A stretch of 64,000 nt of DNA, from the sequence record MZ956761.1. One strand, written 5' to 3'. The notes under the pieces are model-generated. The model was not told where the DNA came from. It did not search any database and saw only the letters and a program-made list of their open reading frames with translations. Position numbers and translations under genes: made by a program. Source of the DNA: a phage. Shown piece after piece: positions 4,410 through 17,791 of this stretch. Numbering within the stretch: position 1 is the first letter of the stretch; every line of letters begins with the position of its first letter.

Positions 4410-4983
4410 AAGATTTCTCCATTATACGTATAAGGTCGTTCATAAATGAATTGATGTCTGATTTTGCTATTATTTTTATTTGACGAAGTTTTTCATTTTC
4501 AAGAACAGCCGCTTCATACGTATCGACCGCAGCAAGTGCTCCTTCATATTGAGGATATTTTCTAGCTTTATCGCCTTTATCATACCAAACATATGGATTA
4601 TCATCGTATGATATTAAATTATAAAATTTTTCACCGTTCTCATTCACATGATATACTATCTGGTCTCCACCCACATTTTTGTATTTTTGTATAGATGCTT
4701 GATAAGCTGCTTCTTGTGAAGTAATCCATCCATAATATGGATCATAATTATCATTACACATCAATAAAACCCAATACAGCTGTGGATTTCCATATATAGT
4801 ATTTGCTAATTCTTCCGGGCGTGGTGAACCTTTAATATAGTAAGTACGTAAGCGGTATCCCGCAAGAGCGCGTTTAAAATAGTCTTTATAGTTTCTAAAA
4901 ATATCTGTCATAGGAATAGTCGGCGCGTTTTTATTCACCGTTTTGGCCGCATATTCAATCGGATCAAAAAATGTAAAGAGCAT
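4393..4983 (-). CDS. 53: Baseplate wedge subunit gp53
   Basis: 196 aa ORF immediately upstream of gene 5 on same strand; length and order as T4 gp53. Confidence 0.8.
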   Translation of the reverse strand: MLFTFFDPIEYAAKTVNKNAPTIPMTDIFRNYKDYFKRALAGYRLRTYYIKGSPRPEELANTIYGNPQLYWVLLMCNDNYDPYYGWITSQEAAYQASIQKYKNVGGDQIVYHVNENGEKFYNLISYDDNPYVWYDKGDKARKYPQYEGALAAVDTYEAAVLENEKLRQIKIIAKSDINSFMNDLIRIMEKSYGNDK

Positions 4984-4996
4984 GGGCCCTCCTGTT

Positions 4997-5004
4997 TATA
5001 AATA
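4997..5004 (+). promoter_or_regulatory. T4-type late promoter motif TATAAATA upstream of gene 4
   Basis: Exact TATAAATA about 27 nt before ATG 5031. Confidence 0.5.
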
Positions 5005-5011
5005 TATTATC

Positions 5012-5019
5012 TATTTATA
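5012..5019 (-). promoter_or_regulatory. T4-type late promoter motif TATAAATA (minus strand) upstream of gene 53
   Basis: Reverse complement of tatttata at 5012-5019, upstream of minus-strand start at 4983. Confidence 0.5.
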
Positions 5020-5030
5020 AGGAGAATCCA

Positions 5031-5483
5031 ATGGCATATTCTGGAAAATGGGTTCCTAAAAATATATCAAAATATAGAGGTGACCCTAAAAAAATTACGT
5101 ATAGATCAAATTGGGAAAAATTCTTTTTTGAATGGTTAGATAAAAATCCAGAAATTATTGCATGGGGTAGTGAAACAGCAGTAATTCCTTATTTTTGTAA
5201 TGCAGAAGGGAAAAAACGTAGATACTTCATGGATATTTGGATGAAAGATTCTTCTGGACAAGAATTTTTTATTGAAATAAAACCTAAAAAAGAAACACAA
5301 CCACCAGTTAAACCAGCACATCTAACAACTGCAGCGAAGAAAAGATTTATGAATGAAATTTATACCTGGTCTGTGAACACTGACAAATGGAAAGCAGCAC
5401 AATCTTTAGCTGAAAAGCGTGGAATAAAATTTAGAATTTTAACAGAAGATGGATTACGAGCTCTTGGCTTTAAGGGGGCATAA
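5031..5483 (+). CDS. 4: Head completion protein gp4
   Basis: 150 aa; divergent from gene 53, followed by genes 2 and 3 as in T4. Confidence 0.8.
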
Positions 5484-6307
5484 TGGCTATTTTTCAAATA
5501 ATTAATGAAAGCACTCCCAAAGTTCCAAAGGTTAAGCAATCATTAAACGAAAAGAAATGGATTCAGATAGGTCTTGAATATAAAAAGGCCAAAGCAAAAG
5601 GAATGACAGGAAAGCAATTTGCTGAAGAAAGAGGAATCAAATACTCTACGTTTACTTCGGCAATGTCAAAATATGCTTCAGGAATTAAAACGGCTGAAAA
5701 GATTCAAAAGCTTGAATCAAAACCAATGAATAAACTCAATAAGCAAGAAAGACAACTGCTTATGATAAATTCATTCAGACAAACATTGCGCGATAAAATT
5801 CGTAATGAAGGTGCAGCAATTAATAATAAAACCAGAAAGTGGTTTGCTGAAACTATTAAGCAAGTAAAAGGACATAAAGTTGTTCGCCCGCAGCCGGGAC
5901 GAATATATGCTTTTGCTTATGATGCTAAGCACAAGGAAACTCTTCCTTACTGGGATAAATTTCCTTTGATAATTTACCTTGGTTTAGGTAAGCATAATTT
6001 AATGTACGGATTAAACTTGCACTATATTCCACCTAAAGCTCGTCAGCAATTCCTAGAAGAGCTTTTAAAGCAATATGCAAATACACCGACTATTACTAAT
6101 AAAACGAAATTAAAAATTGATTGGAGTCAAGTGAAAGGATTTAGGGGTGCAGACCAAATGATTAAGGCATATATACCTGGTAATATTATGGGTAGCCTTG
6201 TTGAAATCGCCCCGAAAGACTGGGCGAACGTTGTGTTGATGCCACTTCAGCAGTTCGTTTCAAAAGGAAAACGTTTCTCTGCAAACAAAGTCTGGTCAAA
6301 TATCTAA
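5483..6307 (+). CDS. 2: DNA end protector protein gp2
   Basis: 274 aa basic protein, start overlaps gp4 stop; size and order as T4 gp2. Confidence 0.8.
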
Positions 6308-12908: not shown

Positions 12909-13073
12909 ATGACTACTTTAATTATTTGGTTTGACGAAAATGAAGAAACATACTGCGTGAACATTGGCGAAAGCCCAATGCCAGAATTTGAATCTTCGGA
13001 TAAAAACTCGGTTGTATCTTGGGCTGAAGGTTATAAAGCAGCAAAAGGCGATGTTGAAATAGTTTACAACTAA
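12909..13073 (+). CDS. Small hypothetical protein (54 aa)
   Basis: ATG 12909 after RBS-like GGAGAAATAA; below track length cut-off. Confidence 0.35.
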   Translation: MTTLIIWFDENEETYCVNIGESPMPEFESSDKNSVVSWAEGYKAAKGDVEIVYN

Positions 13074-13091
13074 GTATGAAGGCGTTACTAT
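13062..13091 (+). promoter_or_regulatory. Early promoter (GTTTAC-N18-TACTAT)
   Basis: Overlaps 3' end of preceding small ORF; followed by tagacttatc motif. Confidence 0.45.
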
Positions 13092-13117
13092 AGACTTATC
13101 ATCACAAGGAAAACATT

Positions 13118-13453
13118 ATGAAACGTAACTTTAGTAAAGCTTTTTGTAATAGAAATGATTATCCTGAAGAGCTTTTTGAATCTAAGGAATTTAAAGAGTT
13201 TAACGAACGTTCTCAAAACATGCCTATACAGTGGGTATTGGATTATGCTAACCGTATCTTTGAAGGCGTACGTTTCGTTGGCCCCGATGATGAAGCTCCT
13301 TATTTTAAAAAGGCTTGGGAACTCGCCAACCAAGCATATATCAATGCTTTAGAATCTTCTAAAGGTACTGACGATGATTTTATTTTATTGGCTATCAATG
13401 ATGCCGTTGTCGAGGCCATCGACGCCTTTATCGACGAGCTAGACGAAGAATAA
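13118..13453 (+). CDS. Hypothetical acidic protein
   Basis: 111 aa; acidic C-terminus. Confidence 0.5.
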   Translation: MKRNFSKAFCNRNDYPEELFESKEFKEFNERSQNMPIQWVLDYANRIFEGVRFVGPDDEAPYFKKAWELANQAYINALESSKGTDDDFILLAINDAVVEAIDAFIDELDEE

Positions 13454-13483
13454 GTTTACAATCTATTAGAAACGTGATATTAT
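13454..13483 (+). promoter_or_regulatory. Early promoter (GTTTAC-N18-TATTAT)
   Basis: GTTTAC 13454-13459, TATTAT 13478-13483. Confidence 0.45.
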
Positions 13484-13510
13484 CTAATTATACCAACCTA
13501 AGGAAATACT

Positions 13511-14104
13511 ATGAACACACTGAAGAAAATTGTTGAGTTTATTCGCACTAAACTTGGTTCTGCTATGGCTAAAAATTTATCTGTTGAAGAACAGTATACT
13601 GCTGCGGCAGCAAAACTGCTTGATAAAATTAAAGATCTAAAAACTGCTTCTGTTAAATCTATTAATGAAGAAAAGCGTATTCGTGAACTTATTGTCGAAA
13701 AGAATAAGCAGGCCGAATCAAAAGAGCGTGAAATTCGCAAGCTTCTTTCCGAAGGTCAAGATGTAACAATGCATGCTAAACTCGGCTTGCTATATCGTCG
13801 AACAGCTGAGCAGTTGACTACTAAAGCTGATGGTTATGCTGAAATGCGAATTGAAATCGCTAAGAAAGTAGTTGAATTGGATGATGCACGCCAAGAACTT
13901 GCGGTTAAATTGGAATATATCCGTGAAACTCGTGCAGCAAATGCCCTTGGAATTAGTACTGCTGATGATGTAGTTGAAATTGCAGCACTGACTAAGGTTG
14001 ATATTGAAGATACTCTTGCTCGAGTTGAAACCTTTAACGGTAATATTTCTGGGGTTGAAACTACTTCTGCTGATGTTCAGGAATACATTAATTCTCTGAA
14101 ATAA
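13511..14104 (+). CDS. Coiled-coil protein, possibly PspA/IM30-like
   Basis: 197 aa, predicted largely helical with heptad-like Ala/Leu/Lys/Glu patterning. Confidence 0.45.
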
Positions 14105-14110
14105 TGATAA

Positions 14111-14130
14111 GGGGCTTCGGCCCCTATTAC
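14111..14130 (+). terminator. UUCG-tetraloop hairpin, terminator-like
   Basis: ggggcttcggcccc right after stop; weak T-tract. Confidence 0.45.
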
Positions 14131-14145
14131 TTGGAGTAAATAGGA

Positions 14146-14754
14146 ATGAAAATGCAAAGTGATTTCAATTCAATGTTTGAAGAGTTCCAAAGACAGGTTG
14201 ATGTTCCAGACCAATTACTAAATGCTCTTAAACGTATGGCAGAAGGACGTAATTATTATTGGGGTTCTTCATATGAAACTGATGAAAGTCTTTCTGGAAG
14301 ATTTTCCAGAGGTAAAAAGTCTTTAATACGTCCTGGAATACTTATTAACAGTATTGAATCAATTCATTCATTGACATGTGATTTTGATGTTGAATTTACT
14401 GATTTCATTTCTCCTGAATGGTCAGTTTGTTATTTAAACGACGATTTTGATTATCTCGGTGTTTATAGTTTAAGTGACGCATGGTTTAAACGTAACTTAC
14501 AAAAGTCAAATTTATTTTATATTGATACTACGGTAAAATTTCAGGGCAAGAAATATTTTTTTACTCTTATAGTTGATTCTGAAACGAAGTATGAAAATAA
14601 ACGTATTCTTAGTAAAAAGAATATCTTAACTATTGTTGATGATCTTTTTGATAAATTCGTAGAAAATCCCAATTTTGAAAGCGATTTATTACTAGAAAAA
14701 TTTGTGAAGGAATGTAGAGAATATGTCAAAGCCATCAATGTATCTTCCAAGTAA
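14146..14754 (+). CDS. Hypothetical protein
   Basis: 202 aa; C-terminal F-V-K-E-C-R motif shared with next three genes. Confidence 0.5.
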   Translation: MKMQSDFNSMFEEFQRQVDVPDQLLNALKRMAEGRNYYWGSSYETDESLSGRFSRGKKSLIRPGILINSIESIHSLTCDFDVEFTDFISPEWSVCYLNDDFDYLGVYSLSDAWFKRNLQKSNLFYIDTTVKFQGKKYFFTLIVDSETKYENKRILSKKNILTIVDDLFDKFVENPNFESDLLLEKFVKECREYVKAINVSSK

Positions 14755-15115
14755 ACCGTTGAAGTATGAATTAAAGCGCCAGCTAATTTCTACTGATGTA
14801 TTAATAGGTCCTGTAATAGCTGTATCATTTGTAATTCTACTGGGGGTTGGAATAGTTATAGATGTTATGACTGATATTGAATCTAATATAATATTTGCGT
14901 CAACATTAATTCTTCCAATGATAGTTCCATTTTTATTAGTACCTGTAAATTGGGTAGGATACTGGTATCAAGGAAGGCATTATCGTAAACGCGTACGTGA
15001 TTGGAAAGCACAGTGTAAAAAGATTAAAAAGGAACATCAGCTTAAACTTGCTGCGTATGAATTTGATGAAATTATGAAATTTGTTAAGGAATCACGATGC
15101 AAAAGCCAAAACTAA
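14723..15115 (+). CDS. Membrane protein, tandem paralog family member 1
   Basis: 130 aa, two hydrophobic helices, C-terminal FVKESR. Confidence 0.5.
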   Translation: MSKPSMYLPSKPLKYELKRQLISTDVLIGPVIAVSFVILLGVGIVIDVMTDIESNIIFASTLILPMIVPFLLVPVNWVGYWYQGRHYRKRVRDWKAQCKKIKKEHQLKLAAYEFDEIMKFVKESRCKSQN

Positions 15116-15459
15116 ATAAAGTCAAATATTCGCTTCCTGAGTCATTTTTAATTTTTGCTGTGGCGTTGGCTGCAGCTCTTGCGGGTAGTCTTTTTGGATT
15201 GTTAATTGACTGTCTTATTTTAAACATTGACGGCACAGTAAATATAATAGAAGTTTGGAGTGAACTTCACTATACTAAAATTATTTCATTATTTTCATTC
15301 TTTGGTACCATGTTATATTTTCATTATGATAATTTTAAAATAAATTGGCAAAGAAAAAAAGATTACAAAATACAATTAAAAGAATATAATAGCTACATGT
15401 CTTATATTGAAAAAGAATCAATGGAAGAGTTTGTGAGTGATTGTAGGAAAATTAAATGA
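15097..15459 (+). CDS. Membrane protein, tandem paralog family member 2
   Basis: 120 aa, two hydrophobic helices, C-terminal FVSDCRKIK. Confidence 0.5.
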   Translation: MQKPKLNKVKYSLPESFLIFAVALAAALAGSLFGLLIDCLILNIDGTVNIIEVWSELHYTKIISLFSFFGTMLYFHYDNFKINWQRKKDYKIQLKEYNSYMSYIEKESMEEFVSDCRKIK

Positions 15460-15944
15460 TTTTAAAAACTCGCTGGTATGATTTAGATGATGGGGATGAT
15501 GGCATTTCAGTTGATAGAGTTGACTGGAATGGTTGTTCCGAAGATATGAAAAATTTGTTGATTAGGGAGTTTAGAATGGGATATCAAGCAGCTAAGCCAT
15601 TTACTGTAACAGATGATAAGTTCGTATGTATTCAAAACGGTCGCGCTAAGTTAACGAATGCTGATTGGTTCACAGATAAGAAGGTTCTTCTGTGGTATAT
15701 CATTAGTCTTCCTATATCATCGTTCGTATTTTACTTTTTTATAAAAAATCCAATGGACAGAATAGGAGATTGGGTTCTTTTAACTATACTTGTTAATATT
15801 TTTACAGCAGCAGTATTATCAGGAATATGGTACATGTTCATTGAAATGCCATGGCGGTTACGCAGACAGCAAAAGATTTTTGATGAAAAGAAATATACTC
15901 AAAATTTAAATAACTTTATCACTGAATGCAGGAAATTAAAATGA
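15456..15944 (+). CDS. Membrane protein, tandem paralog family member 3
   Basis: 162 aa, soluble N-part plus two hydrophobic helices, C-terminal FITECRKLK. Confidence 0.5.
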   Translation: MILKTRWYDLDDGDDGISVDRVDWNGCSEDMKNLLIREFRMGYQAAKPFTVTDDKFVCIQNGRAKLTNADWFTDKKVLLWYIISLPISSFVFYFFIKNPMDRIGDWVLLTILVNIFTAAVLSGIWYMFIEMPWRLRRQQKIFDEKKYTQNLNNFITECRKLK

Positions 15945-16381
15945 AAACACTATCAGCTGGTATTATCTTTATGACAGAAGATAAAGATTTATTTATGGGT
16001 CGGGTTACTGGTTCTCGTAAGCCTGGAATGATGGCACACCGCTGGGATATTCCAAAGGGCCGTGTAGAAAATTCTGATTTAAGCGCATTAGATGCAGCAC
16101 GAAGAGAATGTTTAGAAGAGACTGGTTTTAGCAATTATAATCCAGACCTTCTAGAAGACCTAGGTGTATTTAAATATTCTAGTAATAAAGACCTACAGTT
16201 ATTTTATTATACGATTCCAGTAGAGCATGAGATGTTTAGAAATTGCCATTGCGAGTCTTATTTTGAAAATAAAGACGGTGTTATGATTCCAGAGATGGAC
16301 GCTTTTGCTCTTATTCCTCGTACTCAGTGGCAATATGTGATGGGTCCTTCACTTTACCGAATAATGAACAACCTCTTTTAA
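15926..16381 (+). CDS. nudE: Nudix hydrolase NudE
   Basis: 151 aa; Nudix box GRVENSDLSALDAARRECLEETGF; directly upstream of e. Confidence 0.8.
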   Translation: MQEIKMKTLSAGIIFMTEDKDLFMGRVTGSRKPGMMAHRWDIPKGRVENSDLSALDAARRECLEETGFSNYNPDLLEDLGVFKYSSNKDLQLFYYTIPVEHEMFRNCHCESYFENKDGVMIPEMDAFALIPRTQWQYVMGPSLYRIMNNLF

Positions 16382-16912
<531 letters not shown>

Positions 16913-16916
16913 AGTT

Positions 16917-16946
16917 GTTTACTTTCTCCTAGAATTGTGATAGTAT
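16917..16946 (+). promoter_or_regulatory. Early promoter (GTTTAC-N18-TAGTAT)
   Basis: Directly after e stop, upstream of internal-protein gene. Confidence 0.5.
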
Positions 16947-16983
16947 ATTCACAGTTACTAATTAAAATATTTAAAGGAAACAC

Positions 16984-17301
16984 ATGAAAACGTATAAAGA
17001 ATTTATTGCAGAATCTGCTGCAGGACAACGTGTAGAAGGCGGTTATATCTGGATTGAACAAGTTGAGCCGCCGAGTCGCACTTCTACGGGTAAATGGAAA
17101 ATCACTGTTGATGGTCCTGGTGGTAAACGTAGGACTCTTAAAGAAATTAACGGGTACTATGAAGAAGCTCTTTCTGACGCGGGTACTTATATGATGCAAA
17201 TCATGATTAAAAACCCAGAAAATCGTTTTGCGGCTAGAGTTTTCCGCCGTATTGGAAATAAGCTTTATGATGCATATTCTAAAAACTTTCCTAAAGAATA
17301 A
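16984..17301 (+). CDS. Internal protein (CTS MKTYKEFIAE)
   Basis: 105 aa; CTS-type N-terminus with I-A-E site; IPII/IPIII locus position. Confidence 0.6.
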   Translation: MKTYKEFIAESAAGQRVEGGYIWIEQVEPPSRTSTGKWKITVDGPGGKRRTLKEINGYYEEALSDAGTYMMQIMIKNPENRFAARVFRRIGNKLYDAYSKNFPKE

Positions 17302-17317
17302 AAATTAAAGGATACAC

Positions 17318-17791
17318 ATGAAAACATATCAAGAATTTATTACTGAAGCAGCTATTAATTCTCAAATTATTGCTGAATCTTTTACTGATCTTTTGAAATT
17401 TAAAAAAGGTCAAAAAATCACTGCTGTATTGGATGATGGTACAGAAGTTGAGATGGATGTACAGGGATATAATTATGCAGTAGATGGAAAACTGTATAAT
17501 AAATCTCATGCTAAATTTGATTCATTTGACGACTTTGTTAATACAGTTGAAGATGAAAAAACTCGTAGATCCATTGCAACTGGTGATGCTAAGGTTCTTA
17601 TGGCACATGGTCATGAACGCATTCGCGCTAAACAGAATAAAATGGGTGAAGATAATTTTGCATTAGTTGGTTATCAATCTGGTAAACAAACTTATGGCTA
17701 TCAGCGTACTGCTACCATGTATAACAAAAATGGTAAAATCGCTTTCGTGAATAGCAAAGGCTCTATTCAGTACGTCAAATCATTCAAATAA
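17318..17791 (+). CDS. Internal protein (CTS MKTYQEFITE)
   Basis: 157 aa; CTS-type N-terminus. Confidence 0.6.
   Translation: MKTYQEFITEAAINSQIIAESFTDLLKFKKGQKITAVLDDGTEVEMDVQGYNYAVDGKLYNKSHAKFDSFDDFVNTVEDEKTRRSIATGDAKVLMAHGHERIRAKQNKMGEDNFALVGYQSGKQTYGYQRTATMYNKNGKIAFVNSKGSIQYVKSFK

Follow-up and report, generated by a model that had tools for sequence, protein, structure and literature searches.

A conserved C-terminal tail shared by the overlapping orphan genes e.5, e.4, e.3, and e.2 of a T4-type phage

In phage T4, the best-studied virulent phage, about half of the genes, including e.2 to e.8, have no known function. A short terminal peptide common to different T4 proteins is known in the capsid-targeting sequence (CTS), an N-terminal MKTYQEFIAE leader found on the internal proteins IPI-III, Alt, and others, which is cleaved in the prohead by gp21, a protease that cuts after L/I-x-E. 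Small phage proteins with two transmembrane (TM) segments include T4 Imm and class II holins such as S21, while T4 lysis depends on holin T, unrelated to e.3/e.4. At the level of DNA, promoter-plus-stem-loop elements (PeSLs) are non-coding and lie in intergenic spaces; cassettes of this kind are said, in work attributed to Arbiol et al. in 2010, to underlie modular gene shuffling in hyperplastic regions of T4-type genomes. Here, we analyze positions 14146 to 15944 of a 64,000-nucleotide (nt) stretch of phage DNA (record MZ956761.1; hereafter, the window), where four consecutive genes, e.5, e.4, e.3, and e.2, encode proteins with a common C-terminal peptide, which we call the tail. The genes themselves are known already as T4 open reading frames (ORFs); it is the shared tail that links these four orphan families.

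All four ORFs lie on the plus strand and end in F-[VI]-x-[ED]-[CS]-R, as a sequence-only reading of the window had proposed, with each motif 3 to 11 residues before the stop codon. The tail cores are L-E-K-F-V-K-E-C-R in e.5 (14692-14718), I-M-K-F-V-K-E-S-R in e.4 (15071-15097), where the Cys is displaced to +2 (RC), M-E-E-F-V-S-D-C-R in e.3 (15421-15447), and L-N-N-F-I-T-E-C-R in e.2 (15906-15932). The motif of e.5 is not terminal but is followed by 11 residues. Read in six frames, the 64-kb window has five matches to the strict pattern F[VI].[ED][CS]R, written post hoc; four of them are these tails, and the count is still five after adding the remaining 105 kb of T4 (~340,000 codons); the six-frame pattern search found no further tail elsewhere in the T4 genome. 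In these scans, 'whole genome' means the window plus the rest of the T4 genome. A test independent of the pattern used one 10-column position-specific scoring matrix (PSSM) per family, built from that family's own orthologues only, to scan the 185,207 stop-free 10-mers of the whole genome. For each of the four families, one of the other three tails is the best non-self match among these positions: with the e.3 matrix, e.5 comes second and e.2 third; with the e.4 matrix and with the e.2 matrix, e.5 comes second; and with the e.5 matrix, e.2 is second, e.3 sixth, and e.4 eighth. The motif is thus significant in alignment-based tests, both in the PSSM scans (4/4) and in profile-profile alignments with hhalign (E-values of 1e-4 to 9e-9).

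The tail is kept in orthologues with 20-50% identity from Mosigvirus (ATK47, JQD51), Gaprivervirus (VR25, VR26), and Dhakavirus (ABTNLS3), and in LQ5, which we group with Dhakavirus although its record gives no genus. Orthologous tails read FIMECREYVKA and FITECREYAKE for e.5, FVKEIRCKS and FIKEVRNGTA for e.4, FIKECRK and FIKECKS for e.3, and FIKECRK, FIEECRK, and FITECRNLR for e.2. With the invariant Phe as anchor, an alignment of 14 tails from four genera yields the consensus [LI](-3) [EN](-2) x F [IV] K E C R [K/E]. In an alignment of five e.5 sequences (20-95% identity), L183, F186, E189, C190, and R191 are invariant, and eight of the 22 invariant columns fall within the last 20 residues; across 27 homologues of e.2, F154, I155, E157, C158, R159, and K160 are invariant, with the TM helices freely diverged. 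Invariant columns are enriched at the 10 tail-core positions in e.5 (Fisher p 0.0017), e.2 (0.023), and e.4 (0.039), but not significantly in e.3 (p 0.20). Among orthologous tails, Arg is written AGA, AGG, CGA, or CGT, Cys TGT or TGC, and Ile ATC or ATT, and the constancy of residues over varying codons points to selection on the protein. Together, these comparisons indicate that purifying selection on the protein keeps the tail, which is the best conserved patch of the orthologues in four genera.

Each family has its own signature, with ECREY in e.5, no canonical Cys in e.4, and LN.FI.ECR in e.2, indicating that divergence of the tails predates the split of the genera and that gene conversion is not homogenizing them. 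Mosigvirus has a fifth carrier, RB69ORF133c, a protein of 101 amino acids (aa) with a hydrophobic N-terminal half that ends in LENFVKECRGK; aligned by hhalign, RB69ORF133c-type proteins match e.3 with an E-value of 3e-6, in the tail only. In Mosigvirus, Gaprivervirus, and Dhakavirus, the tail genes are non-contiguous, lying over 5-8 kb with other genes interspersed, so adjacency does not account for the conservation of the tail. The e.2-e.5 families appear confined to these Tevenvirinae genera. The e.5 family is tiny, with six representative clusters in 1.84 billion proteins, one of them a spurious repeat protein; all 68 homologues of e.3 have a Tevenvirinae-type source; and of the seven matches in IMG/VR to back-translated FIKECRK-stop, four are e.2/e.3 orthologues and three are chance occurrences outside ORFs.

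Outside the tail, the four proteins are related to very different degrees. Profiles of e.3 and e.4 align over 105 columns (hhalign probability 95.7%, E 9e-9), with similar N-termini (MSKPS/MQKPK), and this full-length homology indicates that the two arose by duplication. In contrast, e.3 and e.2 align over 18 columns of the tail only (E 3.4e-6), and the likeness of e.5 to e.3 (E 5e-5) and to e.2 (E 1.6e-4) is limited to ~15 tail residues. However, e.2 has the same layout of two TM segments plus tail as e.3 and e.4, and shares with e.4 the signature P-[VI]..SFV in its first TM segment (TM1). The repeated duplication of one module proposed by the sequence-only reading therefore stands for e.3 and e.4 as paralogues; it fails for the soluble e.5, whose body is unrelated, and for e.2 it has significant similarity in the tail only, with layout and TM1 signature in agreement. 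An absence of similarity beyond the last six residues, which the sequence-only reading named as a refuting outcome, is what e.5 shows against the others, but not what e.3 shows against e.4. Since e.2, e.5, and RB69ORF133c have different bodies and only the tail in common, the tail behaves as a small transferable module.

Three of the four proteins had been called two-helix membrane proteins, and TM prediction agrees for e.4, e.2, and e.3, although in e.3 only the first segment is strong. In e.4, TM prediction gives two strong segments (31-49 and 56-74) separated by a periplasmic loop of six residues free of positive charge, and the 56-residue C-terminal part contains 15 Lys and Arg; the uncharged loop and basic C-terminal part argue for an N-in/C-in topology. 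The e.2 protein begins with a conserved N-domain of ~75 residues that has no signal peptide, followed by TM segments at 78-96 and 106-124 and a basic tail. Its AlphaFold2 (AF2) model (27 sequences, predicted local distance difference test score, or pLDDT, of 71) has a helix at 75-96 and a single helix, 103-160, comprising the second TM segment (TM2) and the tail. The strong hydrophobic segment of e.3 is at 19-37, and the weaker one, at ~59-77, aligns to TM2 of e.4. No TM segment is predicted for e.5, whose AF2 model is poor (pLDDT 51, four sequences) and places the tail, with low confidence, in a C-terminal helix at 180-199. The L-x-x-F-I-x-x-C spacing puts L, F, I, and C on one helix face, with a hydrophobic moment of 0.34-0.75. 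Modeling and residue spacing thus show each protein to bear the same predicted amphipathic helix of 10-12 residues, which in the membrane proteins would be the end of a cytoplasmic helix continuing TM2. The e.2 model has no Foldseek match in the PDB (best E 2.5), and a search of PDB sequences with the e.5 profile found nothing.

The DNA encoding the tails has a second role. From e.5 to nudE, the Nudix hydrolase gene that follows e.2, the block lacks a single intergenic base, and successive genes overlap by 32, 19, 4 (ATGA), and 4 (ATGA) nt; we number these junctions J1 to J4. Every tail contains a hexamer resembling a Shine-Dalgarno (SD) sequence 5-10 nt before the next ATG. In J1, AAGGAA (14707-14712, plus strand, codons K-E of the e.5 tail) lies 10 nt upstream of the e.4 ATG at 14723, and in J2 the same hexamer (15086-15091, plus strand, K-E of the e.4 tail) lies 5 nt upstream of the e.3 ATG at 15097. 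In J3 and J4, the hexamer is AGGAAA, formed by codons R-K, at 15445-15450 in the e.3 tail and 15930-15935 in the e.2 tail (both plus strand), each 5 nt upstream of an ATG, at 15456 for e.2 and 15941 for nudE. Thus, the earlier proposal that the tail DNA doubles as the ribosome-binding site (RBS) of the next gene was confirmed. Given an SD sequence inside the tail and a next start that overlaps or abuts it, the e.5-nudE segment would be one gap-free, translationally coupled block. No promoter enrichment was found inside it.

Codon usage bears the marks of this arrangement. Against a background in the window where AAG makes up 22% of Lys codons and AGG 4% of Arg codons, seven of the eight K-E tails examined are written AAG-GAA/GAG. 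Tails without K-E use AGG-AAA (Tequatrovirus e.3 and e.2), AGG-AAT (Mosigvirus e.2), or GAG-GAA (VR25 e.2), and the lone AAA-GAA tail, that of RB69ORF133c, has CGA-GGA-AAA just downstream. Two extra codons after the tails of Tequatrovirus e.3 and e.2 and Mosigvirus e.2 restore the SD-start spacing. Comparison of codons across tails shows that they were apparently chosen to contain the SD sequence of the next gene.

The junctions are less alike as DNA than the sequence-only reading had assumed. The segment GAATG.AGGAAA, described at each junction, is literally present in the last two (GATTGTAGGAAA and GAATGCAGGAAA), while J1 reads GAATGTAGAGAA and J2 GAATCACGATGC. Nor is the junction preserved as such, since the same residues are spelled by different codons (Arg AGA/AGG/CGA/CGT, Cys TGT/TGC) and the RBS sits at K-E in J1 and J2 versus R-K in J3 and J4. 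Compared with random pairs of gene starts, DNA similarity is weak for J1-J2, J1-J3, and J3-J4 (empirical p 0.009-0.023) and not significant for the other three pairs, so the signal is mainly at the protein level. J1 and J2 are 94% identical over 16 nt, and their start regions are also alike. The likeness of J3 and J4 runs ~35 nt into the following genes, in different frames, with GCTGGTATGATTTAGATGA and GCTGGTATTATCTTTATGA at 15472-15490 and 15956-15974, respectively, ~16 nt after the ATG; it may be the trace of an event that placed e.2 before nudE, or chance in AT-rich DNA.

The number of tail-bearing genes varies among related phages, from two to five per genome, with breakpoints at the junctions or inside the homologous TM1, as the copy-number comparison suggested alongside the sequence-only reading shows. 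Tequatrovirus-type copies in the phage collection number 503 for e.5, 499 for e.4, 499 for e.3, and 448 for e.2, so about a tenth of these phages lack e.2. In RB32, RB33, PP01, PST, and others, e.3 runs straight into nudE, and the hybrid junction TGT-AGG-AAA/TTA-AAA-TGA has e.3 tail sequence through AGGAAA and then that of the e.2 tail; read from this joint, the RB32-type loss of e.2 is a precise deletion through the shared AGGAAA hexamer, that of 15930-15935 serving as the microhomology on the e.2 side. Similarly, LQ5 has lost e.4 precisely, start codon to start codon. UFV05/UFV10 have an in-frame chimera of 106 aa in which e.4 residues 1-31 are fused to e.2 from TM1 onward, with the breakpoint on a TCCT.TA microhomology, at the P-[VI]..SFV common to the two proteins; that the join falls in matching TM1 segments further supports common ancestry of the hairpins. 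The sequences of these joints show that short similarities at the junctions and in TM1 served as putative substrates of recombination.

As the role of the tail, we propose docking or assembly. A helix common to all carriers would, on the cytoplasmic side of the inner membrane, bring otherwise different proteins to each other or, with greater likelihood, to a single partner of phage or host origin, with the conserved Cys on the hydrophobic face (L-x-x-F-I-x-x-C) forming part of the contact. Where proteins of different build have a peptide in common, the usual reasons are a joint partner, assembly with each other, or a signal for sorting or turnover. A shared partner is favored because members are lost singly without the others decaying, the number of carriers varies, and the motif need not be C-terminal. 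Mutual assembly into a bundle, with one Cys per helix, is possible, though the absence of a canonical Cys in e.4 speaks against it. To the account as a whole, namely a selected shared helix, junctions that embed SD sequences and act as recombination joints, and a docking or assembly role for the tail, we assign a probability of about 60%. A more specific proposal is decidedly tentative: the tail might be a C-terminal address or docking signal of T4-type phages, a counterpart of the CTS at the cytoplasmic membrane, that recruits two to five accessory proteins (the membrane proteins e.2, e.3, e.4, and RB69ORF133c, and the soluble e.5) to one phage or host hub at the inner membrane, possibly via a reactive Cys next to Arg/Lys; its clients would be gained and lost as cassettes because the tail DNA is also the junction and the next RBS.

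Several observations weigh against the docking account. In e.4, the canonical Cys position is S, I, or V, and the Gaprivervirus e.4 tail has no Cys at all, so the Cys cannot be essential for every member. Alignments of e.4 with e.2 and of e.4 with e.5 are not significant by hhalign. The spelling of K-E as AAG-GAA and of R-K as AGG-AAA places part of the conservation under nucleotide-level constraint. Moreover, the e.2 gene of the T4 reference (NC_000866, 67652-67960) is frameshifted to 102 aa, losing TM2 and tail; a frameshift within an A-run shortens e.3 of RB32 to 98 aa; and in an engineered T4 clone, a deletion has removed e.7 to e.3 together with the start of e.2. Members are thus individually dispensable, which argues against an obligate four-subunit complex.

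Four other explanations have to be weighed against a selected docking helix. That AT-rich coding sequence would yield such tails by chance or composition gains something from the fact that the motif was defined after being seen, and that short repeats of 70-85% identity are frequent in this DNA; however, the genome-wide counts, the independent PSSM scans, the profile-profile E-values of 1e-4 to 9e-9, and the conservation in orthologues contradict it, and chance is excluded as the explanation of the shared tail. The junction might instead be kept solely as an RBS or re-initiation site for translational coupling, the peptide being incidental. The SD-like hexamer 5-10 nt before every next ATG, the strong codon bias to AAG-GAA and AGG-AAA, and the stop/start overlaps of 4-32 nt at all four junctions are what such a constraint would produce, but an SD sequence spans ~6 nt and the conserved peptide 27-36 nt, and the SD falls at differing positions of the motif (K-E vs. 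R-K). The e.5 motif of VR26 is intact even though e.4 starts 20 nt past it; between genera, the codons for Arg, Cys, and Ile change but the encoded residues do not; and the junctions are only weakly similar as DNA, with no credible Rfam match in 13000-17500. We therefore consider a purely nucleotide-level explanation unlikely.

Slightly less unlikely, yet still improbable, is that the tail is a mere relic of tandem duplication with no function of its own, as could be argued from the full-length paralogy of e.3 and e.4, the common layout and P-[VI]..SFV signature that permitted an in-frame natural chimera with e.2, and the 94% identity of J1 and J2 over 16 nt next to similar start regions. Yet the tail is the best conserved segment, on TM bodies diverged beyond recognition; it is also present on RB69ORF133c and on the soluble e.5, with its unrelated body; and it has been kept since the split of the four genera in orthologues of 20-50% identity, where neutral relics would not stay invariant. 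We give equally little weight to a sorting, processing, or turnover signal, either a C-terminal analogue of the CTS with a gp21 site (I/V-x-E) or a proteolysis tag for early proteins. A signal would look just like this, a terminal peptide that unrelated proteins have in common. The tail core F-[IV]-x-E is also similar to F-I-[AT]-E in the MKTY[KQ]EFI[AT]E leaders that begin the internal proteins encoded two genes downstream, and its [IV]-x-E recalls the gp21 cleavage site. None of the tail PSSMs, however, has these leaders among its top matches, the e.5 tail is not terminal and so needs no free C-terminus, three carriers are integral membrane proteins and unlikely capsid cargo, and the most conserved part of the tail, Cys-Arg, has no counterpart in the CTS.

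How does the locus compare with the systems described at the outset? The tail and the CTS are both short, conserved terminal peptides common to unrelated proteins from one phage genome neighborhood, with a core of the form hydrophobic-I-x-E. The tail, however, is C-terminal or nearly so, occurs on membrane proteins, carries a conserved Cys-Arg, and shows no PSSM similarity to the CTS. In the window, two internal-protein genes (16984-17301 and 17318-17791) start with the CTS leader, as MKTYKEFIAE and MKTYQEFITE. Identity of the tail with the CTS was rejected on its C-terminal position and on the absence of the leaders at 16984 and 17318 from the top PSSM matches. With T4 Imm and class II holins, e.3 and e.4 have in common a size of ~100-130 aa, an N-in/C-in hairpin, a basic cytoplasmic C-terminus, and, as to context, a location near the endolysin gene e. 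However, neither sequence nor profile relates them to holin or Imm families: the window proteins match no such model in Pfam/NCBIfam, and one of 14 e.4 homologues matches a holin model, TIGR01598, with an E-value of 0.054. No Imm- or holin-type family is known to share a tail with a soluble neighbor. As in PeSL shuffling, short repeats stand at gene boundaries and small genes are precisely gained and lost (here, e.2 in the RB32 type and e.4 in LQ5), but the e.5-nudE repeat is coding sequence plus SD, with no intergenic space and a microhomology of just 6-9 nt.

Other identities were tried and rejected. For e.4, the Bfi1 immunity protein (NF053699) scores 18.6 bits (E 0.0013) against a curated cut-off of 100 bits, and just two of 14 e.4 homologues match it, alongside assorted unrelated membrane families. 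The label 'sulfurtransferase' (rhodanese) on e.3/e.4 homologues has no profile match behind it (Pfam E up to 0.1, NCBIfam up to 1). It occurs in several NCBI records (homologues P0006, P0015, P0153, P0170, and others), including bacterial assemblies contaminated with T4-like phage, and is probably a propagated mis-annotation. Scans of Pfam, NCBIfam, and PHROG assigned no functional family to the four proteins. In the annotations and the literature searched by gene name, which did not cover the 2003 T4 genome review, no description was found of the shared tail, the e.3/e.4 paralogy, or the embedded RBS.

A selected tail would tie four orphan genes, plus one more in RB69-type phages, into a single system that can be tested through a 12-residue handle. 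The locus also illustrates dual coding in compact form, since the final codons of one gene specify a conserved protein module and at the same time give the following gene its ribosome-binding site; the junctions of the locus show how accessory genes can be lost or fused precisely. Were the tail only a family relic, the gain would be a modest one in annotation, namely the e.3/e.4 paralogy, a full-length e.2, and corrected start codons.

The window belongs to a Tequatrovirus: over positions 13400-17400, it shares 100% identity with Escherichia phage ADUt and 94-96% with hundreds of T4-like phages. Synteny and the annotation of T4, RB32, and ADUt identify the four ORFs as T4-type e.5, e.4, e.3, and e.2; Tequatrovirus orthologues are 85-100% identical to them, and the order e.6-e.5-e.4-e.3-e.2-nudE-e is kept. 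All four families are annotated as 'hypothetical' or 'predicted membrane protein', and databases hold them as four separate families. On the plus strand, e.5 (14146-14754) encodes a soluble protein of 202 aa that ends in FVKECREYVKAINVSSK, the 11 residues after the motif overlapping the start region of e.4; it is 95% identical to T4 e.5 and matches phrog_2607 in full (E 2.3e-109 over 1-202 of 203). It is followed, with the 32-nt overlap, by e.4 (14723-15115, plus strand), which encodes the 130-aa two-TM, N-in/C-in protein ending in FVKESRCKSQN (phrog_2604, full-length, E 1.2e-69 over 1-130 of 130). The e.3 gene (15097-15459, plus strand; 19-nt overlap with e.4) encodes a membrane protein of 120 aa ending in FVSDCRKIK (phrog_2330, full-length, E 2.2e-60). 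The e.2 gene (15456-15944, plus strand; ATGA overlap with e.3) encodes 162 aa ending in FITECRKLK, with a ~75-aa cytoplasmic N-domain containing W..DDGD.GI..DW.GC, followed by the two TM segments and the tail (phrog_2203, full-length, E 2.1e-78). In the T4 reference, the frame downstream of the e.2 frameshift still reads LNNFITECRKLK up to the stop; e.2 of the window is intact, at 162 aa. PF26873 is assigned to all e.4 homologues and PF26896 to all e.2 matches in a large protein collection, as read from the precomputed annotation of these homologues, the local Pfam copy having no models for the four proteins.

The gap-free block is closed by nudE (15941-16381, plus strand; PF00293, E 9.6e-14), which overlaps e.2 by the 4-nt ATGA and is followed by the lysozyme gene e (16418-16912). 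Start annotations vary in this region. ADUt has e.4 starting at 14738 and nudE at 15926, and RB32 has the equivalents of 14723 and 15941; the T4 record agrees with RB32 on e.4 (14723) but begins nudE earlier, at the equivalent of 15926. To judge from the conserved MSKP..YLPSKP and the context AGGAAA-N5-ATG, the probable true starts are 14723 (e.4) and 15941 (nudE). Upstream, e.6 (13511-14104; 197 aa) precedes e.5 across a 41-nt gap, where a GC-rich hairpin with a UUCG loop, AGGGGCTTCGGCCCCT (14110-14125, plus strand), marks the upstream edge of the block. No other intergenic structure adjoins the block; the hairpin may serve in transcription termination or in RNA stability. The e.6 protein, labeled 'host specificity protein' in RAST-annotated records, has only noise among its Pfam matches; by eye, it is largely helical and coiled-coil-like, and, unlike its neighbors, it is strongly conserved in all four genera.

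A second tandem family with a common C-terminal motif is present in the same hyperplastic region of the other genera and absent from the window and T4. After e.3 in Mosigvirus, Gaprivervirus, and Dhakavirus, there are three to five tandem small genes (65-101 aa) that all end in W-[VFIY]-x-S-S-x-x-C, for example, GAWVSSSAMC, GGWVSSSSEC, TSWVSSSYEC, GFWFNSSMSC, and KIWYPSSC. They are found at 4691-5959 of sequence L006 (VR26), 4069-4863 of L004 (ATK47), 1-1068 of L007, 4216-5255 of L009, and 56-1306 of L010.

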